Virus genome (UHGV): UHGV-0055357
Direction: 5' to 3' (one strand)
Source: a virus
Length of the DNA: 42,138 nt
Positions within the stretch are counted from its first letter, which is position 1. Each line of letters begins with the position of its first letter. The position numbers and the translations under genes were made by a program. Below the pieces are notes generated by a model. That model had not been told where the DNA came from. It searched no databases and saw only the letters and a program-made list of their open reading frames with translations. Below are positions 4,657 to 19,633 of the stretch, one piece after another.

Positions 4657-4701
4657 TTCCTCATCAATCCCTTATCGCCGGGTCGCGGAACTTTTACTGA
4701 G

Positions 4702-4862: not shown

Positions 4863-6017
4863 TTACGCTTTGTGTTTCTTAAAATTTTCGTCGTTTTGGA
4901 CGAAATGGAGAGAGTCCAGTATCAATCCCGCGATCCGCAGGATGTCCTCGGGTGAGTCCAGGTAAATGCGGTTGCCGTCTGCCTCCAGCCCGGCCCTGGA
5001 TATTTCATTGTAAATTACTGGTGTGAACTCAATAGGGAGTTGAATAGATGAGCGCAACTTTTTGTCATGATATCGAGCTATCCATCTATTTGTTTTTCCT
5101 TTAAATAGTACGGAAAAATAGGACTCTGTATCTTTGCCGTGTAAATCAACGTCTGCTCCCACAATGGCCTGGATTTTTTCGAACACCACCCGCTCGTTAT
5201 AGGTGGTGATAATATTTGGATTGTTGGGGTCGATAATATCAGCAGTCTCATCAATTACGGGTTCGTTGGCTGGATCTGGTTGCTGTACCACTTCCTCAAC
5301 TGCGGGATTGAACGACAGGCCGGATACCACCATTGCGCTGAGTGAGCGCTCTACTGCCTGTTTAACCAGCGGGGTAATTGACTCCAGAAATTTTTGGTTC
5401 AACTGACGTCCGATATTGGCATGGCTGGCAACATAACGAACAAAATCAACGTCAACCTCTTTGAGGCTTGCTGTGATAATTTTGGTGAATGACGATATGT
5501 AAACGCTTTCCTCCGCCAGAGTTCGTAGCGCCTCAGGCTTGAATTTATCGTGACGGAATCTAAAAAGCTGTTCGGCGTCAGCGTCTGAAATATCGTCCAT
5601 CACAACGCGTAAAAACGGCGTTGTGTCCATGATGTTTTTCTCTTTTAAATCAGTAAAAAAGCGCCACTCAACACCGTTAGTTATCGCGGAGATCGTAACT
5701 TCTGGAGTTGAGTTGAAATAGCGGGAGAGCTGCGGGCAATGGTTGTCGATTTTTTCCCGGCAGGATTTTGCTTCGATAAACATGACAGGCACACCCTGGC
5801 AGAATAGCGCGTAATCGACTCGCTCACCACTTTTGACGCCAGGGAAATCGGCGGCATACTCGGCTTTAACTTTCTGCGGATCGTAGGCATTAAAACCTAA
5901 AATATCTAAAAATGGCAGGATTAGCGCCTGTTTCGTGGTTTCTTCAGTTGTGCAGTGTTCCCTAACGTTTTTAACGTGTTCGATGTGATTTTTTAACTTT
6001 TGCTTAAAGCTTTCCAT
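4863..6017 (-). CDS. PD-(D/E)xK nuclease, HsdR-N-terminal-like restriction-endonuclease fold, with uncharacterised C-terminal domain
   Basis: 384 aa. N-terminal motifs ETTKQALILPFLDILGF … RVDYALF … VMFIEAK … QLSRY … ITNGVEWRFF match the D…E-x-K core of the type I HsdR N-terminal nuclease family. Same strand as the repressor and 31 bp downstream of it. Confidence 0.8.
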   Translation of the reverse strand: MESFKQKLKNHIEHVKNVREHCTTEETTKQALILPFLDILGFNAYDPQKVKAEYAADFPGVKSGERVDYALFCQGVPVMFIEAKSCREKIDNHCPQLSRYFNSTPEVTISAITNGVEWRFFTDLKEKNIMDTTPFLRVVMDDISDADAEQLFRFRHDKFKPEALRTLAEESVYISSFTKIITASLKEVDVDFVRYVASHANIGRQLNQKFLESITPLVKQAVERSLSAMVVSGLSFNPAVEEVVQQPDPANEPVIDETADIIDPNNPNIITTYNERVVFEKIQAIVGADVDLHGKDTESYFSVLFKGKTNRWIARYHDKKLRSSIQLPIEFTPVIYNEISRAGLEADGNRIYLDSPEDILRIAGLILDSLHFVQNDENFKKHKA

Positions 6018-7193: not shown

Positions 7194-7212
7194 ACGGCAT
7201 CAGGCGGTCCGC

Positions 7213-8166
7213 GTGGCAGAAATTGAAGACGGTTATACGCGCATTGCTAATGATCTTTACGAGGCACTGATAGGCGCAGATTTGACAAAAGTTCAAAGCA
7301 AAGTCGCGCACGCAGTATGCCGCAAAACATACGGGTTTAATAAAAAAATGGACCGAATATCGGACGGGCAGTTAGCTGAAATAACCAGATTGCCGCGGCA
7401 AAAAGTTAATGCTGCGAAAAACGAACTTATATCCATGAAGATTATAAATCGTGAATGTGGATTAATTGGTATAAATAAAAATATCGCCGATTGGGATATT
7501 AACGGCTCACATCACAGTATTAATAATGTCACCAAAACAGTGACAAAAACTGTCACCAAAACAGGGACAGAATGTGTCACCGATTTGGTGACAAAAGAGG
7601 TGGAAGAAAGTGTCCCCAATTTGGTGACAGATGAAAGCAATGATGTCACCAAAACAGTGACAAAAACTGTCACCAAAACAGGGACACACAAAAGACAAAA
7701 GAAAGTAAATACTAAAAGATCTTCGTCAGAGAATTCTAACGATTCCTCTGACGAGCAATTACAGAAATTTTTATCAGCCCATCCTGATGCGGTGATTTAT
7801 ACCCCGTCCGGGGCAAAGTGGGGAAACGCTGATGACCTGCGTTGTGCTGAATGGCTTTCCGCCGTGGTTGAAACAATCAGGCCGTCTGCAACAAACCGAA
7901 ATATGACCTCGTGGGCAAACGACGTCCGCATGATGCGTTCGCTGGATAATCGCTCACACCGTGAAATCTGTGAGTTATTCAAATGGGCGTCCAGTGATGC
8001 TTTCTGGTGCTCGAATATTTTATCTCCTGCAAAACTGCGTGAGAAGTGGGACACGCTCGCGATACAGCGTGACGCCGGAGGACGTAAACAGCGGCAGGAA
8101 AATTTAAACCACGGTGACGATTCCGAGCACTGGAATAGCCCTGAGGCCTGGAGTGATTTTATATGA
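7213..8166 (+). CDS. O: replication initiator protein O
   Basis: 317 aa. N-terminal domain aligns by eye with lambda O (DGYxRxxNxL … GADLTKxQxKV … RKTYGxNKxMDRIxDxQLxEITxLP). Central VTKTVTKTVTKTG repeats are the coding image of the iterons. Confidence 0.9.
   Translation: MAEIEDGYTRIANDLYEALIGADLTKVQSKVAHAVCRKTYGFNKKMDRISDGQLAEITRLPRQKVNAAKNELISMKIINRECGLIGINKNIADWDINGSHHSINNVTKTVTKTVTKTGTECVTDLVTKEVEESVPNLVTDESNDVTKTVTKTVTKTGTHKRQKKVNTKRSSSENSNDSSDEQLQKFLSAHPDAVIYTPSGAKWGNADDLRCAEWLSAVVETIRPSATNRNMTSWANDVRMMRSLDNRSHREICELFKWASSDAFWCSNILSPAKLREKWDTLAIQRDAGGRKQRQENLNHGDDSEHWNSPEAWSDFI
7527..7686 (+). repeat. origin of replication: six ~19-bp iterons inside the O gene
   Basis: Copies of TGTCACC-N5-RGKGACA start at 7527, 7551, 7575, 7611, 7644 and 7668, followed by an A-rich tract 7687-7721. 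Same architecture as ori-lambda. Confidence 0.75.
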
Positions 8167-8852
8167 CACCCGAATTATACCGCGCAATTGAAAACCGTGC
8201 TGGGCGAGCGTTATCGCGCATGTCGGGCGCTAACGCAGATCAGGCAAGGGTTATTAATCCCGAAGCTGAAAACCTTGTTGACGCGCTATTCAGACAGCTT
8301 AGACAGGTTTTTCCTGCCTCCACGCAGACCAATTTAAAAACCGCTGCCGATGAAAAAACCGCAAAGCAGCAATGGATCGCCGCGTTCGCAGAGGCAGGCA
8401 TCAGCCAGCGTGAACAGTTATCAAACGGCATGGCAAAGGCTCGCGCCAGTGCGTCGCCTTTCTGGCCTTCACCCGGTCAGTTCATCGCATGGTGCCGTGA
8501 AGGGAAAGGCGTGCTGGGTATCTGCGCCGCTGACGTCATGACCGAGTACTGGAACTGGCGAAAACTGGTTTTTCGTTATCCAACGAGTGAGCAATACCCG
8601 TGGACACAGCCGGTTATGTACCACCTGTGTATTGAGTTACGTCGCCGGGGAACTGAGGGCCAGATGACCGAAAATGAGTTAACCGCGCTCGCTGGAAAGC
8701 TGTTGGTTGACTGGGAAAAACGCGTAATGGACGGCAAGCCGATTCCGCCAGTTCGCCGCGCACTGGCGGCACCTTGTGCTCCGAGGGGGAAAACTCCGGC
8801 GCAGGAATTACTGGAAAAATATAACGCTCGCAAATCTGCCGGGCTGATTTAA
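8163..8852 (+). CDS. P: replication protein P (helicase loader)
   Basis: 229 aa. FPAS, SPGQFIAWCREG and EQYPW motifs match lambda P. ATGA overlap with O. Confidence 0.9.
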   Translation: MTPELYRAIENRAGRALSRMSGANADQARVINPEAENLVDALFRQLRQVFPASTQTNLKTAADEKTAKQQWIAAFAEAGISQREQLSNGMAKARASASPFWPSPGQFIAWCREGKGVLGICAADVMTEYWNWRKLVFRYPTSEQYPWTQPVMYHLCIELRRRGTEGQMTENELTALAGKLLVDWEKRVMDGKPIPPVRRALAAPCAPRGKTPAQELLEKYNARKSAGLI

Positions 8853-9215
8853 ACAGGAGGTTTTATGAGAAACGATATTTCATGGCGAGGGCATTTATGA
8901 CCGTTGGTGTGGCATTTGCTATAGCGTGGGCGTTAAAAGGATAAATCATGAATGAAATAAGAATATTAAAACTCAGCGGAGTGCATGGCGATCCCGTTTT
9001 TGTGGTCATGAGTTGTATTGAGTCAATGACACACGCAGGTTATACGCTACTGAGGACAACATCTGGTGCGCCGCCATACCCAACCATTCCGAGAATGAGC
9101 GCGATATGATGAGCCACGGTGATAACCCTCGGTCGAATGCTTTTTGTGAGCTTCTGGCGTTCCGGTGTAACCAAAAGTGCATTAACAAAAATTAATCATC
9201 TAACAGGAAATATTT

Positions 9216-9464
9216 ATGAGTAAATCATTAGAAGATTTAAACGCTGTTCTTTTTTCGCAGATTGATAAGCTTTCCACGGAAGAGCCTGGAGATAAACTGT
9301 CAGAGGAGATTAAGCGCTCCAAGGCGATGGTGGGGGTAGCGGATACTATTATCGCAAACTCGCGTTTGGTATTCGATATCTATGAATCGCAAGGAGGCAT
9401 GAAATCTATAGAAAATCGACCGGACATTTTGCGAGTTAAAAAACATACTGGCAATGGGAAATAG
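9216..9464 (+). CDS. hypothetical protein
   Basis: ORF track, 82 aa. First gene of a tightly packed three-gene unit with the HNH and methyltransferase genes. Confidence 0.5.
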   Translation: MSKSLEDLNAVLFSQIDKLSTEEPGDKLSEEIKRSKAMVGVADTIIANSRLVFDIYESQGGMKSIENRPDILRVKKHTGNGK

Positions 9465-10005
9465 ATTTCATAAGTTCACGGAAGAGCAAAAATGCTGGTT
9501 ATTTATTCATAACGAGTTGTCTCGCAGAGAGGCAACTCGATTATTTAACCTGCGATTTCAAACGGAACTCATTGAACAGCAAATAATTAATTTCAGAAAA
9601 CGACACGCTTTGCTTACCGGGAGAACAGGACGGTTTGCTCCAGGGCAAAGCTCGCCATCTCTCTCGGGCGCAAAAGGTCCAAACAGGACGTCATTTAAGC
9701 GTGGACATACTCCAGCCAACAAAGCCCTGGTGGGGGAAGAGAGGGTGAGGGGGGGATACATTTACGTCAAAACGGTTGATGGGCGGTGGAAATTAAAACA
9801 TCGATTGCAGCATGGAGGGCAGGTAGTGAGGTTTTGGGATGGGGACGCAAACAATTTATCACCGGAAAATTTAATTCCAGTTACACGCTCCGAACATCTT
9901 ATTTTAAACAGAACGGGGTATTCACATACACCAGAACCCGTAAGGGATGCCCATATTGCCGTTGCAAAATTGAAAGCAAAGATCATTGAGGTAAAGAAAA
10001 AATGA
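9454..10005 (+). CDS. HNH endonuclease (HNH_3-like)
   Basis: 183 aa. HRLQHGGQVVRFWDGDANNLSPENLIPVTRSEH matches the HNH catalytic pattern (His, Asn-Asn, final Glu-His). 4-nt overlap with the downstream methyltransferase. Confidence 0.7.
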   Translation: MGNRFHKFTEEQKCWLFIHNELSRREATRLFNLRFQTELIEQQIINFRKRHALLTGRTGRFAPGQSSPSLSGAKGPNRTSFKRGHTPANKALVGEERVRGGYIYVKTVDGRWKLKHRLQHGGQVVRFWDGDANNLSPENLIPVTRSEHLILNRTGYSHTPEPVRDAHIAVAKLKAKIIEVKKK

Positions 10006-11534
10006 GCATTGCAAATGAACTCTGGCAGGCCGTTGACATATTGCGCGGAGAGGTAAAATCCTCAGAGTACGGAAAATATATTCTACCACTCGTTATCCTG
10101 CGCAGGATAGAGCAGGTTAGTGACGTGGAGACATTACATTCAATCACCACAGGTGCAGAACTAGCGCGGCATATAGCAACCCTTTCGGGTACAGTGCGGA
10201 ATATTTTATCCTGTTTTGATTTTGACAAAACAATCAATAAAACACATGACACAATAGTACAGCAGTTGGCCTTAGCGTTTTCCTGCATTGATGTTCACCC
10301 GGATCGCGTAAATTCTGGCGATATGGGCATGATATTTGAGGATATGATCCACCGTTTCGCGAGTGATGAAACGGCGGGCGAATTCTACACGCCAACGGAT
10401 ATAGTGAAACTGATTACAGAACTGGTGATTCCACTGGATATCTCCAGTGAGGTGGCAATATACGATCCGACCTGCGGGACGGGGGGGATACTCGGCGCGG
10501 CGGAGGAGGTTATTCGTACTCGCCGCCCTGGAGCTGACGTTACATTATATGGTCAGGAATTGAATCCCGAATCTTTCGCCATTTGCCGTGCAGATATGTT
10601 ATTGCGCGGCAGGGATCCTGAAAATATCAGGCTGGGCAATACATTATCCGAGGACAAACTGGCGGGGCGTACATTCGATTTTATTCTCTCTAATCCACCG
10701 TATGGGGTGGACTGGAAAAAAATCGATAAGCTTGTACGAGCTGAACACTGTCAGGGGTTTGCAGGCCGTTACCCAGCGGGGTTACCCCGTGTGTCGGACG
10801 GTTCTCTCCTGTTTGTGCAGCACGTTATCAGCAAGCTGGCACCGGGCGGTCGCGCAGGAATTGTACTCAACGGCTCGCCATTATTTACTGGTGGAGCGGG
10901 CAGTGGAGAGAGCCAAATTCGCAGACACATACTGGAAAACGACCTGCTGGATTGTATTATCGGACTGCCAAAAGACATGTTCTATAACACAGGGATCACC
11001 ACGTACATCTGGATACTGACAAATGAAAAGAGAGTAGAACGAAAAGGGCTGGTCACGCTAATTGATGCATCTGACCTATTTGAAAAAATGCGCAAATCTC
11101 AGGGCAATAAGCGCAATCAGCTGACTGACGCTCAGATCGCTGAAATCGTCAAGTTGTACCGTGATAATCAACCAGGTGAAAAAGTTAAGATTTTTCCGTA
11201 CACCGCTTTTGGTTTCCGCCGAATCACTGTTAAGCGCCCGGACGAGAACGGGAAACCCGATAAAAATAAACGCGATAATGAAAACGTGCCGCTGGGTGAG
11301 AATATCGACGCGTATTTTGCCAGAGAGGTTACGCCACACGTTCCTGACGCCTGGATTGACAGAAAGAAGCGAGATCCGGTTGACGGGGAGGTTGGGATTG
11401 TTGGCTATGAAATACCCTTTAATCGTCATTTTTATGTTTATGTCCCACCGCGTCCCCTTGAAGAAATTGACGCTGAGCTCGCGAGCGTAAGCCGTGAAAT
11501 TGCTGCAATGCTTGCCGAGATGCAAGCGTATTAG
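10002..11534 (+). CDS. N6-adenine DNA methyltransferase, HsdM-like, no adjacent specificity subunit
   Basis: 510 aa. SAM-binding motif I IYDPTCGTGGIL, catalytic motif IV SNPPYG, C-terminal GYEIPFNRHFYVY motif as in type I M subunits. No HsdS or HsdR helicase gene nearby. Confidence 0.85.
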   Translation: MSIANELWQAVDILRGEVKSSEYGKYILPLVILRRIEQVSDVETLHSITTGAELARHIATLSGTVRNILSCFDFDKTINKTHDTIVQQLALAFSCIDVHPDRVNSGDMGMIFEDMIHRFASDETAGEFYTPTDIVKLITELVIPLDISSEVAIYDPTCGTGGILGAAEEVIRTRRPGADVTLYGQELNPESFAICRADMLLRGRDPENIRLGNTLSEDKLAGRTFDFILSNPPYGVDWKKIDKLVRAEHCQGFAGRYPAGLPRVSDGSLLFVQHVISKLAPGGRAGIVLNGSPLFTGGAGSGESQIRRHILENDLLDCIIGLPKDMFYNTGITTYIWILTNEKRVERKGLVTLIDASDLFEKMRKSQGNKRNQLTDAQIAEIVKLYRDNQPGEKVKIFPYTAFGFRRITVKRPDENGKPDKNKRDNENVPLGENIDAYFAREVTPHVPDAWIDRKKRDPVDGEVGIVGYEIPFNRHFYVYVPPRPLEEIDAELASVSREIAAMLAEMQAY

Positions 11535-11908
11535 TCTTTTCTTGACGTTCATTTATTCATAATCATACCGTATGCATAAACGGTAAATATTGAGTGTGAT
11601 TATGGGTAAAGATGCTAACTATGACGTGGGCGTGAGCGGGGAGACGATGGGCTTTATAACGCCCAGAAAGTGGGTTTTTTCCAGCGAGCCAAAGTGTATG
11701 GTGGTGGGTGGTGGTTTGGCGGGCTTATCCTGATTGCTTTGTGTTCGAATTTGAGGCGCCCACGTCATTGAGCCAGGGGATCGCATACATTGCCAGCTAC
11801 AACAAAATGGCAGCAATGCCCGAATTCGACGACGACTTTCGGCTTGAACCCTGAGCTGCTCATATACGTTTTGAATAATTGCATTTACCCACAGTGTAGT
11901 TATTTGAG

Positions 11909-12553
11909 GTGTATATGAACGATATCTATGATGATAGCTGGTCTGAAAAATTCATCGAGCGCGTAGAACTGCTGCGCAAACTCGACACTCAGGCTATCAC
12001 TATGCCCCTGTTCCGCGAACGTGCGGAACAGATATTCACTCAAATGTCCGAGCGCGTAATAGCGCGCGCCCGGAAACAACTTGGCGACACAGACGTAACA
12101 GCGGTGTCGTTTGAAGAGGCGATCCGGTATTACGTCGTTGGCGGCAGCGGTGAGCCGGTCCTCGATTATCTCGTTTCCCGCGTTAAACCGTTTTGCGACC
12201 AGATGCGTATATCTGTTGATGCGCACGGCGTAGCGGCGTTCTGTTGTGCGTTCATGATGCTCAAAGGTGATTTGCGCGTGTCCTACGCGTTTTTCACACT
12301 GCTGATGCGCCCGTTAGTGTCCGCGTACAGAATCGGAGATTTCGGGCGCAGGCACGGCGAAAAGGGCGGCAGACCGCATAATCCGCATTATCAGGAGGCG
12401 TTGCAACACGCGGTCAACGTTATAGACGCGCACCCGAACTGTGCGCGGGTATTTCTCGTTAACACGGTCGTATCAAAACTGAGTGAAAAATACAGTGATT
12501 CACCGTCTGCCCGGACTGTGAAACGCTGGTTACAGGCCGCTGGCATTTACTGA
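11909..12553 (+). CDS. hypothetical protein
   Basis: ORF track, 214 aa (GTG at 11909 or ATG at 11915). No family recognised. Confidence 0.55.
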   Translation: MYMNDIYDDSWSEKFIERVELLRKLDTQAITMPLFRERAEQIFTQMSERVIARARKQLGDTDVTAVSFEEAIRYYVVGGSGEPVLDYLVSRVKPFCDQMRISVDAHGVAAFCCAFMMLKGDLRVSYAFFTLLMRPLVSAYRIGDFGRRHGEKGGRPHNPHYQEALQHAVNVIDAHPNCARVFLVNTVVSKLSEKYSDSPSARTVKRWLQAAGIY

Positions 12554-12662
12554 CAATAACCCCGTTTTGTCGGCAATAGGGGGTTTTGCCACTGTCCGCG
12601 ATAATTGCTGATTATTAAAATGCGCCCAATGTTTTTTATTGAGACGCTCCCGGATGAGGTTG

Positions 12663-12682
12663 TACTGTACAAATATACAGTA
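12663..12682. promoter_or_regulatory. LexA (SOS) box
   Basis: TACTGTACAAATATACAGTA matches the CTGT-N8-ACAG consensus with AT-rich centre. Sits 30 bp upstream of the ATG at 12712. Confidence 0.6.
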
Positions 12683-12711
12683 TTTATGTCTCTGATTTAG
12701 CGGGAGATATC

Positions 12712-12912
12712 ATGAAAATCATGAATGATTTAATACCGGACGCAGAGTGCCACACGGGCCTGGTACTGGTGAGAATAGAGGAAGGGCGCATTATTGGCGG
12801 CTTTGTCCTGCGGCCTGACCAATTCGTTACATCAATAACTGAACTGGAGGATGCACGAAAAATGGCAGGTTTGCCAGCATCCTCTTACACTCGCGGCGTA
12901 ACTGATTTATAA
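12712..12912 (+). CDS. small protein under the LexA box, candidate antirepressor
   Basis: 66 aa, GGGAGA ribosome-binding site. Functional call rests on the SOS box and the non-cleavable repressor, not on sequence similarity. Confidence 0.45.
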   Translation: MKIMNDLIPDAECHTGLVLVRIEEGRIIGGFVLRPDQFVTSITELEDARKMAGLPASSYTRGVTDL

Positions 12913-12973
12913 TATTCACCCGCGAGCCTGAACAACTCGCACTGAGTAACACTGTGCCAACGGAGCGATACCG

Positions 12974-13435
12974 ATGGCACTGCAATTCCCCCGTGACGGT
13001 CTGCGCCTTCACAAATCAAATTTTGCTGCGATAGGGCAGCAATTAACGCCGTTGTTAGAGTCGGGCGAATGCTATCGCCTGATTATCAAACCGTGGCGCG
13101 AAAAGCGATCTCTCTCTCAAAACGCGTTATTTCACGCGTGGATGAGCGAACTGAGCGCGTATCTCATTGCCCGCAATAAACCGTTTGCAACGCCAGAGTG
13201 GTGCAAAGACGCCCTCAAACACACGTATCTCGGCTACGAGTCTGTTGAGCGTGTTGATGTGATCACGGGCGATGTGACTGCGGTTCAAAATCTCCGGCAC
13301 ACGTCCGATCTCGACACTGGTGATATGCATGATTTTATGTGCCGCGTTGAGGCGTGGGCGCTAAATATCGGCTGTAAACTCCCGACTCCCCACGATTCTG
13401 AATTTATGCGCCTGCGCGAACGGCAGGAGGCGTAA
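12974..13435 (+). CDS. ninB: NinB / Orf-family recombination protein
   Basis: 153 aa. RSLSQNALFHAW matches the lambda NinB core motif RSLDQNRKLWAC. Confidence 0.8.
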   Translation: MALQFPRDGLRLHKSNFAAIGQQLTPLLESGECYRLIIKPWREKRSLSQNALFHAWMSELSAYLIARNKPFATPEWCKDALKHTYLGYESVERVDVITGDVTAVQNLRHTSDLDTGDMHDFMCRVEAWALNIGCKLPTPHDSEFMRLRERQEA

Positions 13436-13635
13436 TGAAGTACTCCTGGTTTAATCACGACAATTGCACAACTGCTGAGGCTGATGAACTCCAGCAGCGT
13501 TATCGCGCGCGTGGTGTTCAGATAGTGCGAGAACTGAATCCCGATCACGTCACGTGGACTATCAGCGCCCGGCTGCCGGAGAGTGAAAAACCTCCGCGCG
13601 TCCAACGTTGCTGGCAAAACCGGATGTGGGGCTGA
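13435..13635 (+). CDS. hypothetical nin-region protein
   Basis: 66 aa between ninB and ninG, ATGA-coupled to ninB. No family recognised. Confidence 0.4.
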   Translation: MKYSWFNHDNCTTAEADELQQRYRARGVQIVRELNPDHVTWTISARLPESEKPPRVQRCWQNRMWG

Positions 13636-13637
13636 GC

Positions 13638-14243
13638 ATGGCTAAACAACCGAGGCGCAAATGCAAAATCTGCCGCGAGTGGTTTCACCCGGCGGCGTTT
13701 AATATCTGGTGGTGCTGCCCGGATCACGGCGTTGAATACGCGCTACAGCTCCGGGCGAAACAGCGCGAAAAACAGCAGGCAAAAGAAAAGCGGGAGCGGG
13801 CGCAATCAGCGAAAAATGAGCGCGCGAAATGGCGTGAGCGGAAAGCAAAAGTTAAGCCCCTGACACACTGGATCAACATGACACAGCGCGCGTTCAATGA
13901 CCTCTGTCGCGAGACAGACCTGGCAAACGGGGAGGGCTGTATTTCGTGCGGCACACGCGATGCGTTCGCGTGGCACGCGGGACACTACCGGACAACAGCG
14001 GCGGCGGGCCAGTTACGTTTCACCCGTGCCAACGTCAACCTGCAATGCGATGCCTGCAACGTTCACAAATCAGGAAATATCGAGCGTTACCGGATCGGAC
14101 TGGTGCAAAAAATTGGCGAGGCCGCTGTGATGGAGATAGAGAGTAACACCACAGCACACCGCTGGACCGTCGAAGAACTGGCAACAATACGCGCGGAGGC
14201 CCGCACTGGATTACGTGAATTGAAAAAGAGGGTCGCAGCATGA
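13638..14243 (+). CDS. ninG: NinG / Rap-family recombination protein
   Basis: Starts MAKQPRRKCKICREWFHPA, with CISCGT … WHAGHYRTTAAAGQLRF … HKSGN … IESN … HRWT colinear with lambda NinG. Start taken at the ATG at 13638 rather than the track start 13608. Confidence 0.85.
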   Translation: MAKQPRRKCKICREWFHPAAFNIWWCCPDHGVEYALQLRAKQREKQQAKEKRERAQSAKNERAKWRERKAKVKPLTHWINMTQRAFNDLCRETDLANGEGCISCGTRDAFAWHAGHYRTTAAAGQLRFTRANVNLQCDACNVHKSGNIERYRIGLVQKIGEAAVMEIESNTTAHRWTVEELATIRAEARTGLRELKKRVAA

Positions 14244-14896
14244 CGTATAACGCCGGTTTTAAATCACTCCCGCTTATAACCAGTGAGGCGCATTTACGCC
14301 GTATCTGGTGTCATGGCAAACGCACTATAACGCCGGGTCAGCGTGTGTGGGTGCGGTATATGTTGAACCTGTGGGGATCTGTGATGGGGGGCGATACTTG
14401 CCCGGGCTGTTCGGGGTCAAGCGTGATAGGGCGCTTAATGATGCAGCAGGAATGGGATCAGGATAGCGCGGATCGCATCATCCATGCTGTTAACAGATTG
14501 CATGAAGAAGGTCTGCGGGGCGAAGAGTTGTTCCGCAAGGCTCGCGAATTGGTGATCCCACAATCCACGACAAAATACTGGCTTGAAAAGACTCAGGCTG
14601 ATGATGACGCGGAGTTCATTGAGCGAGTGATAGTTAAGACGTTGCGAAAAGATAGCCCGATGTACGCGGTTGCGGTTCTCAGGCATTGCTCACACCTCAA
14701 CACGCACCGTGTAGCTGTAACTTTGGCAGGGATGACAGGGACAGATGTGCAGGCCGCTCGAAAGCGGATTGTATGGTGTGAGAAGGTTTTAGAGGAAGAC
14801 TTGTTTTATGCAATGCGGCGAGAACTGAGAGCCGAGCTGACTGATTTACAAAATGGAAGCAGAGCAATGCAAGCCCGTGGCTACTCAGACTTATGA
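14240..14896 (+). CDS. late-gene antiterminator, Q-like
   Basis: 218 aa, directly after ninG and before a hairpin terminator. Cys-rich CPGCSGS motif. Assignment is mainly positional. Confidence 0.5.
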   Translation: MTYNAGFKSLPLITSEAHLRRIWCHGKRTITPGQRVWVRYMLNLWGSVMGGDTCPGCSGSSVIGRLMMQQEWDQDSADRIIHAVNRLHEEGLRGEELFRKARELVIPQSTTKYWLEKTQADDDAEFIERVIVKTLRKDSPMYAVAVLRHCSHLNTHRVAVTLAGMTGTDVQAARKRIVWCEKVLEEDLFYAMRRELRAELTDLQNGSRAMQARGYSDL

Positions 14897-17354: not shown

Positions 17355-17549
17355 ATGAAAAAATTATTAATTCTGGTGGCGCTGGTCGCCCTGGCTGGTT
17401 GTACACACACGACGTATACGGAAGCAACACGCGCAGACGGAACGACGGTGAAACATATTGCGATCGCGCCGGGTACGAAAATTACAACGGCAAACGGAAA
17501 CTGTATTGATTCGACGGGCGCGGCGGCTGAGTGTCCGGTAAAGGAATAA
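17355..17549 (+). CDS. small lipoprotein
   Basis: Signal peptide MKKLLILVALVALAGC with lipobox LAGC, ~48-aa mature part. Start taken at the ATG at 17355. Confidence 0.6.
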   Translation: MKKLLILVALVALAGCTHTTYTEATRADGTTVKHIAIAPGTKITTANGNCIDSTGAAAECPVKE

Positions 17550-17997: not shown

Positions 17998-18777
17998 ATG
18001 GCTGAACAGATAGCAGTTATTTTTAAAAACATTTCCGAACTGAATGAGTACGAACGAAATACGCGGACACATTCAGATGAGCAGGTTGCGCAGATAGCAA
18101 AAAGCATTGATGAGTTCGGCTGGACTAACCCGGTGCTGATTGATGAGGCCGGGGAAATTATTGCAGGCCACGGGCGCGTTGCTGCTGCAAAAGATCTCGG
18201 GCTGAATGAGGTCCCAACAATCACCCTTTATGGCCTGACCAACGAGCAAAAACGCGCGTACCGGATCGCGGACAACAAATTGCCGTTAAATGCGGGTTGG
18301 GATGATGAGCTGCTACGGCTAGAACTAACGGAACTCAGCGCCTGCGGGTTCGATATAGAGCTAACTGGATTTAGTGCGGGCGAACTCGATGAGCTATTGG
18401 CGGAAATAGCGCCCGGTGCGGAGTCGGAAGATCCGTACACAACAAAAATTGACACCCCGGTTTATGAGCCGTCTGAAATTAATCCTGCAGTAACTGAACT
18501 CTACGATGACTCAAAAACACACCAGCTCGTTAATGATATTCGTGCGGCTGGGCTACCTGGCGACGTGGAAAAGTTTTTACTCTCTGCCGCTGAGCGTCAC
18601 ACGGTATTCAATTTCAATAAAATTGCTGATTACTACGCGCACGCACCAGAAAATATCCAGACACTATTTGAACAATCCGCACTGGTGATCATTGATTACG
18701 AAAAAGCCATTGAATACGGCCTCGTCCACATGACGCAGAAACTGGTTGAAATAGTTTACGGTGATCGCGATGCGTGA
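17998..18777 (+). CDS. ParB-like nuclease domain protein
   Basis: GWTNPVLIDEAGEIIAGHGRVAAAKDLG matches the ParB N-terminal nuclease motif. Start taken at the ATG at 17998; the track extension from a TTG at 17875 looks non-coding. Confidence 0.7.
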   Translation: MAEQIAVIFKNISELNEYERNTRTHSDEQVAQIAKSIDEFGWTNPVLIDEAGEIIAGHGRVAAAKDLGLNEVPTITLYGLTNEQKRAYRIADNKLPLNAGWDDELLRLELTELSACGFDIELTGFSAGELDELLAEIAPGAESEDPYTTKIDTPVYEPSEINPAVTELYDDSKTHQLVNDIRAAGLPGDVEKFLLSAAERHTVFNFNKIADYYAHAPENIQTLFEQSALVIIDYEKAIEYGLVHMTQKLVEIVYGDRDA

Positions 18778-19633
18778 TGATTTTTGCGCGTTCATCATGA
18801 CGCACGGGCGACCCGACAAAGTTCTTACATACAGCACATTGAGACGTGCCGGATACACGGGAAAAATTTATATCGTCATTGATGACGAGGACGAATCACA
18901 GCAGCGTTATCGTGATGAATTCGGGGATCAGGTTCTGGTTTTTTCAAAAGGGGACATCGCCAGCCGATTTGATGAGGGTGACAATTTCGGTGACCGCCGT
19001 TCGATATTTTACGCCCGCAACGCCTGTTTTGAGTTGGCGGAATTAGTTGGCTGCAAATATTTTATTCAGCTCGATGATGATTATCACGAATTTCAGTTCC
19101 GTATTAATGAGAATCTGGACGTAGCGTATACCGCAATCCGTAATCTGGACGAGGTGCTCAACGAAATGCTGGAGTATTACCTGCGAATACCAGCAGCATC
19201 GATAGCAATGTCGCAAGGCGGCGATTTTCTCGGCTCAAGGACTGATGGTTGCGGGGCGTGGATAAAACGCAAAGCGATGAACAGTTTTATTTGTTCAACG
19301 GATCGCAAATTTGAGTTTGTCGGGCGGGTTAACGAGGACGTGAACACGTACACGAACCTCGGTCGTCGTGGCGAGCTGTTTATGACTATCGGTGCTGTTC
19401 AGTTGGGACAGAAACAGACGCAAAAAAATAGCGGTGGCATGACTGAGTTATATCTGGATTCAGGAACCTACGTAAAAAGTTTTTATTCGGTCATGTATTC
19501 GCCGTCATGCGTAAAGATCGGATTGATGGGCGCAAGCCATAAACGATTACATCACGAGGTGACCTGGAATAACGCCGCAGTAAAAATCATCAATGAGCGT
19601 TATAAAAAATGCCGTCAACGGGGTTCGATATGA
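18761..19633 (+). CDS. hypothetical protein with acidic DxD-like motifs
   Basis: 290 aa. IVIDDEDE and IQLDDDYHEF motifs. No family recognised with confidence. Confidence 0.55.
   Translation: MIAMRDDFCAFIMTHGRPDKVLTYSTLRRAGYTGKIYIVIDDEDESQQRYRDEFGDQVLVFSKGDIASRFDEGDNFGDRRSIFYARNACFELAELVGCKYFIQLDDDYHEFQFRINENLDVAYTAIRNLDEVLNEMLEYYLRIPAASIAMSQGGDFLGSRTDGCGAWIKRKAMNSFICSTDRKFEFVGRVNEDVNTYTNLGRRGELFMTIGAVQLGQKQTQKNSGGMTELYLDSGTYVKSFYSVMYSPSCVKIGLMGASHKRLHHEVTWNNAAVKIINERYKKCRQRGSI

Follow-up and report, generated by a model that had tools for sequence, protein, structure and literature searches.

Three overlapping genes in a lambdoid prophage raise the question of whether a type I-like DNA methylase and the HNH-annotated protein encoded directly in front of it work together as a restriction-modification (R-M) unit, or whether the methylase is an orphan that acts with other partners. 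The genes occupy positions 9216-11534 of the virus genome UHGV-0055357, a stretch of 42,138 nucleotides (nt) that is referred to as the window throughout and that represents a prophage of Escherichia coli STEC384, inserted between ttcA and uspF, with an identical copy in STEC379. A first-pass annotation of this DNA had described an HNH endonuclease translationally coupled to an HsdM-like methylase, and had offered two readings: an orphan phage methylase directed against host restriction, or a compact module for R-M or exclusion whose nuclease would be the HNH protein. The first of these fits our results; the second does not. We read the locus as two distinct cargo elements of the phage, located between the replication genes and ninB, and it is very probable that it is not an R-M module. 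Jointly with this, our preferred reading, to which we assign a probability of roughly 40%, is that, by analogy with known type I enzymes, the methylase would be an orphan phage HsdM that borrows the specificity subunit HsdS of its host. The three genes are the following:

9216..9464, + strand: open reading frame 1 (ORF1), 82-amino-acid (aa) helical protein, PHROG 2044, constant upstream partner of ORF2
9454..10005, + strand: ORF2, 183 aa, putative HNH_3-like pseudo-nuclease, PHROG 1891
10002..11534, + strand: methylase, 510 aa, orphan type I M-subunit-like N6-adenine DNA methyltransferase according to Pfam, PADLOC and fold

As originally described, all three genes run in the same direction on the + strand and overlap. 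The ATG of ORF2 at 9454 sits 11 nt inside ORF1, which ends with the stop codon TAG at 9462-9464, and ORF2 and the methylase gene share the bases ATGA at 10002-10005, preceded by a GAGG at a distance of about 10 nt.

A type I M subunit without S and R genes

By sequence, motifs and predicted fold, the methylase is a genuine type I M subunit, and it has no recognition domain. Its Pfam matches to N6_Mtase (E=2e-65, 221 bits) and HsdM_N (E=9e-10, 39.8 bits) are both above the cutoffs, and the PADLOC model MTase_I PDLC03029 is matched with E=1e-192 and 640 bits. The protein scores below the cutoff of the NCBIfam equivalog TIGR00497 hsdM (116.4 versus 242.75 bits), a model that represents a different HsdM lineage. 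A match to MADS mad2 is partial and far below the cutoff. With the exception of one phage copy, the nearest relatives are HsdMs of 585-680 aa with 49-50% identity that are encoded in hsdM-hsdS-hsdR operons. The parts of the protein that matter for the comparison are these:

10002..10301, + strand: remnant of the methylase N-terminal domain, residues 1-100
10464..10487, + strand: motif I DPTCGTGG (S-adenosylmethionine binding), residues 155-162
10692..10703, + strand: motif IV NPPY (catalytic), residues 231-234
11241..11531, + strand: methylase C-terminal region, residues 414-510, with a long terminal helix at residues 486-509 (nt 11457-11528)

Median identity to 118 true HsdMs amounts to 61% in the catalytic domain and 65% in the C-terminal 97 aa, and falls to 27% in the N-terminal domain, the most diverged region of the protein. 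The C-terminal region is 67% identical to the C-terminus of a 640-aa HsdM. Essentially every family-invariant column is retained, and the motif I column is invariant in the alignment apart from a change of A to C. The HsdMs of enterobacterial, Aeromonas and related hsdM-hsdS-(DUF5655)-hsdR operons (for example P0007, P0022 and P0021) have the same motifs and the same domain order as the phage methylase. Compared with them, the phage protein has three deletions. In the N-terminal domain, about 41 aa are gone after residue ~40, with the junction near 10119-10124; a further 6 aa are missing in front of motif I, as is an insert of about 95 aa between the catalytic domain and the C-terminal region. 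It further differs in motif IV, which is NPPF in the true HsdMs of the family and NPPY in both phage copies, and in its location in a nin region without hsdS or hsdR. Loss of the ~95-aa insert is evidently tolerated, since P0021, a bona fide HsdM of 585 aa, also lacks most of it.

An AlphaFold2 model of the methylase (predicted template modelling score (pTM) 0.73) consists of a helical N-terminal remnant, a Rossmann-type core, a beta-rich subdomain and the terminal helix 486-509, for which block means of the predicted local distance difference test (pLDDT) range from about 66 to 91; the modelled protein ends in this free helix, which is predicted with confidence. The best 21 matches of this fold in the PDB are all type I M subunits, and full-length matches were obtained to type I M subunits only. 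Best among them are the M subunits of PacII (M1/M2, PDB 7VRU/7VS4), EcoR124I and EcoKI (Foldseek E=1e-23, TM ~0.6), which share the architecture of N-terminal domain, catalytic domain and C-terminal tail but only about 20-26% identity; the methylase tail and residues 395-470 are not covered by sequence-level matches to the PDB. The self-sufficient N6_Mtase enzymes CamA and M.BseCI carry recognition domains of their own and match the methylase over the catalytic domain only. Motifs, Pfam, C-terminal identity and predicted fold therefore bear out the earlier description of a protein with motifs I and IV and an HsdM-type C-terminus that has no recognition domain.

Equally in line with that description, neither hsdS nor hsdR is annotated anywhere in the prophage, and without these two subunits the locus does not qualify as a type I system. 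Among 65 metagenomic homologues of the methylase, 54 are immediately followed by a Methylase_S gene. The ORF that lies directly downstream of the phage gene, at 11909-12553, belongs to no Pfam family; as a candidate for a hidden half-size HsdS it was rejected, because Methylase_S does not match it and the ORFs listed for the sister phage locus did not include it. We identified no active nuclease partner for the methylase, whose gene between P and ninB fits the definition of an orphan phage methylase.

The sister locus (L002/L062), part of the nin region of a different lambdoid prophage, encodes a second phage copy of 509 aa with 73% identity; homologues of RecA_dep_nuc, YlcG and antiterminator Q are encoded downstream of it. 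This copy shares the deletions of the methylase, HsdS is encoded by neither phage, and the gene upstream is an unrelated one of 163 aa. Between the two copies, the nonsynonymous distance (dN) is 0.20 and synonymous sites are saturated (proportion of synonymous differences, pS, 0.82), and because of this combination the short form appears to be maintained by purifying selection and not to be a decaying fragment. These numbers bear directly on the idea that the gene is an inert remnant, that is, a piece of a type I operon that arrived by illegitimate recombination and has no current function. Two internal deletions, the lack of partner genes and the rare occurrence would all suit a remnant. However, the gene has an uninterrupted reading frame and retains all family-invariant catalytic residues, and the same architecture recurs in the second phage at the divergence just given, so that we regard an inert remnant as improbable.

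A third HsdM without an S gene was noticed in a metagenome contig (L065 1286-8492, JACCDO012044779.1). It has 547 aa, 48% identity and a shortened N-terminal domain. Two proteins of repeated helix-turn-helix (HTH) motifs precede it, the second of which overlaps the methylase start by 4 nt, and a resolvase and a further N6_Mtase lie downstream; the contig represents a different mobile element. This orphan hints that the solution of an N-terminally deleted HsdM arose more than once.

Possible modes of action of the orphan HsdM

In solved complexes of type I methylases, the tails of the M subunits and the coiled coil of HsdS form a four-helix bundle, and on DNA the two M subunits form an interface between N-terminal and catalytic domains (PMC9613975). 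Subunit complementation is what defines type I families (PMC3874165). By analogy with these enzymes, the long terminal helix of the modelled phage protein would be the counterpart of the tail that joins the HsdS coiled coil in this bundle (PMC9613975). As a type I M subunit has no recognition domain of its own, borrowing of HsdS is the most likely mode of action, and it is also the simplest explanation for the combination of a tail and a core that are conserved with a remodelled N-terminal domain and no S gene. From this combination we infer a partnership with host HsdS and a role in anti-restriction.

According to this proposal, a type I M subunit would have been captured by a phage lineage and subsequently trimmed in its N-terminal part and its internal insert, with the catalytic core and the putative HsdS-docking C-terminal tail being kept. 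The phage HsdM would then enter a hybrid complex with HsdS from a type I system of its host that belongs to the same family, and this complex would methylate phage DNA at the sites restricted by the host. The altered N-terminal domain possibly favours de novo methylation or uncouples the complex from HsdR, which would resemble the effect of lambda Ral. HsdM's N-terminal domain holds the preference for maintenance methylation as well as the sensitivity to Ral, and mutations in it lead to de novo methylation, in some cases with loss of restriction (PMC12707154). Potential hosts exist, since about 150-290 of 5426 E. coli genomes contain detectable members of this hsdM family. Systems of the family that include an hsdS are, for example, those of E. 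coli KL53 (NZ_CP030919.1, near 2.70 Mb) and of the Salmonella locus L036. A more far-reaching version, which we put forward tentatively, is that the trimmed HsdM may serve as a specificity-agnostic anti-restriction device, whose tail docks to whichever HsdS the host provides and whose N-terminal change results in a de novo methylase and/or in failure to recruit HsdR.

Several observations weigh against such a partnership. In the STEC384/379 lysogens, an HsdS partner appears to be absent: blastn against the chromosome records only did not find a second hsdM of the same family in either strain, and since none was detected, a prophage-dependent methylation motif is probably not to be expected in the STEC384 lysogen. 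The interface between the N-terminal and catalytic domains of two M subunits is required for methylation by PacII (PMC9613975), and the N-terminal deletion could instead cripple the methylase. The short form is known from two phage lineages only, and the position of the gene among the delayed early genes is late for the protection of incoming DNA. Furthermore, conservation of the tail does not single out binding of S, because the tail (65%) is conserved no more strongly than the catalytic core (61%). In a literature search, no precedent was found for the use of a host HsdS by the HsdM of a phage or by an orphan HsdM.

The same anatomy could be read differently, with the trimmed M subunit, probably as a dimer, methylating adenines without any S, with little or no specificity, and thereby protecting phage DNA broadly, as adenine methylases of phages or prophages that are non-specific do. 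An S gene is present in neither phage, and all catalytic motifs are kept under purifying selection. The gene is intact and identical in at least 24 E. coli contigs even though the host seems to lack a cognate type I system, and the conserved beta-rich subdomain in front of the tail (residues ~395-470) could contact DNA. Nevertheless, the full-length fold matches are to S-dependent M subunits only, and CamA and M.BseCI, which match the catalytic domain alone, have recognition domains that this protein lacks. Relatives that depend on S likewise have both the beta-rich subdomain and the tail. Type I M subunits such as that of EcoKI are not known to methylate DNA alone, which also counts against self-sufficiency. 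Taken together, we consider a methylase that acts without S somewhat unlikely.

Comparison with other systems places the preferred model, that of a borrowed host HsdS, between known strategies. Its likeness to lambda Ral would consist in a faster modification of unmodified phage DNA by the host type I specificity, and lambda ral is likewise a non-essential early gene (PMC12707154). Ral itself is different: it is no methylase subunit but a protein of 67 aa that activates the host methylase allosterically, and it has no sequence relationship to the phage HsdM. Self-sufficient orphan methylases of phages (Dam PF05869, D12 and MT-A70) share the early or nin niche and the presumed role, and in other phages they occupy the equivalent slot beside the ORF1-ORF2 pair; they recognise DNA themselves, whereas the phage HsdM is without a recognition domain. 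Ronin (bioRxiv 10.1101/2023.04.06.535777) is also a type I derivative without a nuclease that has been put to another use. However, Ronin is a host-encoded, HsdMS-derived decoy that keeps HsdS, has gained a small membrane toxin and does not need methylase activity, while the phage locus is without HsdS and its catalytic motifs are conserved. Phage orphan methylases and restriction alleviation are thus known; a phage-borne, S-less and N-terminally trimmed HsdM is new, and a literature search found no paper describing one.

The ORF1-ORF2 pair and the loss of HNH catalytic residues

The second piece of cargo is formed by ORF1 and ORF2. We compared 52 loci with an ORF2 homologue, taken from viral contigs, phage records and GTDB genomes, in which ORF1 was found by profile; genes in these related loci were called by simple ORF rules, and the lineages are not independent. 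An ORF1 homologue lies directly upstream of the ORF2 homologue in 51 of the 52 loci (30/30 viral and 21/22 genome loci), mostly with a 4-nt overlap. The loci belong to phages of Vibrio and Aliivibrio and to prophages of Lachnospiraceae and of alpha- and gamma-proteobacteria. ORF1 and ORF2 are therefore a conserved two-gene cassette of temperate phages. ORF1 itself belongs to no Pfam family, and the label of PHROG 2044, 'RNA polymerase beta subunit', looks spurious. At least 3283 relatives of ORF1 are present in the protein database; among the 120 listed, those with a name are called 'hypothetical' or 'phage protein', with the exception of two apparently spurious JGI labels.

For ORF2, the designation as an HNH protein holds in one respect and fails in another. 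The protein matches PHROG 1891, 'HNH endonuclease', over its full length with E=8e-40. Its Pfam HNH_3 score, however, is 21.7 bits and thus below the cutoff of 24.8, which the Vibrio and Aliivibrio homologues pass at 52-56 bits, and the catalytic residues are absent. The Pfam match places the domain at residues 122-148. RefSeq PGAP leaves ORF2 uncalled, with a gap of 538 nt between the annotated genes, and the GenBank record calls the 183-aa gene. In an AlphaFold2 model (pLDDT 73), an N-terminal three-helix bundle is followed by a Gly/Arg-rich linker, predicted to be disordered yet conserved in sequence, and by the C-terminal core:

9742..9909, + strand: HNH_3-like core of ORF2, residues 97-152

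The N-terminal helical domain is duplicated in many members of the family. A Foldseek search of the ORF2 model against the PDB returned nothing below E=0.6, the two-domain model with its disordered linker being a poor query, and no relative of the ORF2 family was found in the PDB by sequence or profile search. An hhalign comparison of the ORF2-family profile with the homing endonuclease I-HmuI (PDB 1U3E) gave a weak alignment (E=0.0011, probability 21%) of ORF2 residues 97-149 with I-HmuI 33-97, which covers NUMOD4-like strands and the HNH core. This alignment agrees with the HNH_3 consensus.

In I-HmuI, His75 is the general base, Asp74 the acidic metal ligand and Asn96 the third residue of the site. 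Their equivalents in ORF2 are Phe127 (codon TTT at 9832-9834), Arg126 and His148. Over 52 distinct family members, the position of His75 is occupied by F in 26, C in 22, S in 2 and Y in 2; that of Asp74 is never acidic but K, I, R, W or C; and that of Asn96 is Leu in 30. A deletion of 8 aa in the hairpin of the HNH_3-like core is unique to the ORF2 copy studied here. The aligned core and the homologues above the Pfam threshold thus link the ORF2 family to I-HmuI and other HNH_3 homing endonucleases, from which it differs by the lost site residues, the constant small upstream gene and the N-terminal helical domain. These comparisons suggest that ORF2 descends from an HNH_3 homing-endonuclease fold whose catalytic residues have been lost, and that it is not a plausible restriction partner; most likely, it is a DNA-binding pseudo-nuclease that acts with ORF1.

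This result bears on the proposal of a compact system for R-M or exclusion, where the HNH protein would cut unmethylated DNA and the methylase would protect. Its appeal lies in the translational coupling of the genes and in the membership of ORF2 in a family annotated as HNH endonuclease. However, a general base and an acidic metal ligand are missing in 52 of 52 members of that family, the third site residue is not conserved, and this ORF2 additionally carries its core deletion. A type I M subunit is, moreover, without a specificity that could match a nuclease. The constant partner of ORF2 is ORF1 and not the methylase: the pairing of methylase and HNH gene is not conserved in the nearest methylase relative, the 73%-identical phage copy, which has the unrelated 163-aa gene upstream. 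PADLOC gave no defence-system match for ORF1 or ORF2. We therefore consider the compact R-M reading largely refuted and very improbable.

What remains of the tie between the HNH gene and the methylase is an association of a different kind. A DNA methylase is found within about 2 kb of the ORF1-ORF2 pair at about 20 of 44 distinct loci (~45%), and directly adjacent in 9. About six families are represented, namely Dam PF05869, D12, MT-A70, C5, a small NPPF/NPPY type and the HsdM described here; at 13 of the ~20 loci the methylase is supported by Pfam or phmmer, at the other 7 by motifs only (Pfam E>0.2). Dam PF05869 lies directly downstream of the pair in Vibrio K303 and Aliivibrio H905, and a Dam homologue (by phmmer, with no Pfam match) directly upstream in a Rheinheimera prophage. 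Two viral contigs have Dam and C5, or MT-A70 and C5, directly upstream of the pair, a Rhodobacteraceae prophage has MT-A70 directly downstream, and in Lachnospiraceae a D12 methylase is located 0.9-1.7 kb upstream. Adjacent methylase genes often have a 4-nt overlap and occur on either side of the pair. Given that a methylase is present in the flanks covered, adjacency exceeds a crude expectation of 18-25% (P ~0.005-0.04), also after related lineages are collapsed.

The small NPPF/NPPY type is a protein family of 190-230 aa with TPxW...EPAxGxG...NPPF/Y motifs, encoded downstream of ORF2 homologues in alpha-proteobacterial prophages (L016 4624-5262, L024 6077-6775, L028 4818-5489, L032 4818-5387 and L033 4630-5325). 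By their motifs, these proteins look like small N6-adenine methylases, but Pfam does not score them significantly (E>0.2).

The pair therefore lies near unrelated methylase families more often than by simple chance, and one could imagine that ORF1 and ORF2 are a dedicated accessory of phage DNA methylases, such as a regulator or a DNA-targeting or DNA-reading factor, and that the three genes are one module that is not a restriction system. The ~20 of 44 loci with a nearby methylase, the nine adjacent genes with their frequent 4-nt overlaps and the excess over the rough expectation would all agree with this. Yet no methylase occurs in the flanking DNA covered at more than half of the pair loci, and the closest relative of the methylase is without the pair. 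The link is hence not obligate. A single partner for six unrelated methylase folds is also hard to picture; 7 of the 20 methylase calls are motif-only, the lineages lack independence, and overlaps of 4 nt are frequent in phage operons. The genes around the pair have replication functions (DNA polymerase III beta, SSB, DnaA-like proteins and primases), and the replication module is the usual site of phage methylases. Shared position may thus explain part of the signal, and a common replication or early module possibly much of it. We consider a dedicated methylase accessory unlikely.

The stand-alone nuclease, the prophage and the meaning of the locus

A further nuclease gene of the prophage had been suggested as the other half of a split arrangement:

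4863-6017, - strand: stand-alone nuclease, 384 aa, with a PD-(D/E)xK HSDR_N domain only, PHROG 4225

In a split type I-like system, this HSDR_N nuclease would serve as the R module for the phage M subunit, and both proteins indeed derive from type I components. The nuclease gene, however, is on the opposite strand in the immunity operon, directly downstream of cI, while the methylase gene belongs to the rightward early operon. According to Pfam, the nuclease, the only HSDR_N-bearing protein of the prophage, is also without a helicase or translocase domain. Moreover, members of PHROG 4225 occur in many Gram-positive phages and in Klebsiella phage KpF5 (76% identity), and none of these phages is among the 40 listed of 109 phage records that match the methylase, a comparison in which co-occurrence was not checked directly. 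A split system is thus hardly credible. The nuclease is an independent gene that nothing ties to the methylase. Its position downstream of cI is that of rexAB in lambda, and it is probably a defence or exclusion gene expressed in the lysogen.

The order of genes in the prophage is int-xis, exo/gam, the stand-alone nuclease, cI, cro, a gene in the cII position, O, P, the three-gene locus, ninB, ninG, lysis, terminase and structural genes. The region 9216-11534 was found in 2 of 5426 complete E. coli genomes, STEC384 and STEC379. Segments 9000-11700 and 7200-14300 gave no matches outside these two strains, and for 7200-14300, which spans O, P, the three-gene locus, ninB and ninG, a megablast match is accordingly absent in 5424 of the 5426. 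The region 9216-11534 does occur at 100% identity in at least 24 draft or metagenomic E. coli contigs, with zero variation within the lineage, and no DNA match was found in the phage collection. Despite its lambdoid architecture, the prophage lineage is unusual for E. coli. A promoter and terminator scan of 8700-12100 gave sites no more numerous than in shuffled sequence, and an Rfam scan of 8700-13000 found nothing.

Three observations elsewhere in the prophage were made in passing. The O-like gene at 7213-8166 encodes repeated VTKTVTKTG peptide units at about 7530-7700, which suggests iteron-type DNA repeats of an origin inside the gene, as in lambda O. In E. coli ATCC 8739 (NC_010468.1, ~1016.3-1017.1 kb), a type I-E array of clustered regularly interspaced short palindromic repeats (CRISPR) holds at least 3 spacers that are 100% identical to the prophage, at window positions 5065-5099, 5423-5456 and 17363-17394, and a partial match of 24 nt at 4668-4691; two of these spacers match positions inside the stand-alone nuclease gene. 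The same CRISPR matches occur in 145 other E. coli genomes, and further CRISPR-annotated matches with 95-97% identity fall at about 12446-12484 and 13925-13967 of the window. Finally, a gene for a ParB_N-domain protein (17998-18777, + strand) is overlapped by a second gene (18770-19633, + strand) that matches Pfam TAGT (TET-associated glycosyltransferase) with E=8e-37. The two genes are located between the lysis genes and terS, and RefSeq labels them 'ParB/Srx' and 'hypothetical'. They may be a DNA hypermodification module; neither TET/JBP nor a C5 methylase was seen in the prophage annotation.

For the annotation of temperate phages, it follows from the missing catalytic residues and the constant small partner gene that PHROG 1891 'HNH endonuclease' proteins are not to be read as nucleases or restriction partners. 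The frequent nearness of the ORF1-ORF2 pair to methylases of many families provides a lead for a controlled comparative study. With regard to the methylase, phage orphan methylases are a known anti-restriction strategy, normally with DNA recognition of their own and with one set of sites each. If an HsdM of the type described here does borrow host HsdS, its protection would extend to every member of a type I family, independently of the target sequence, and it would be a counterpart of lambda Ral at the level of a subunit.

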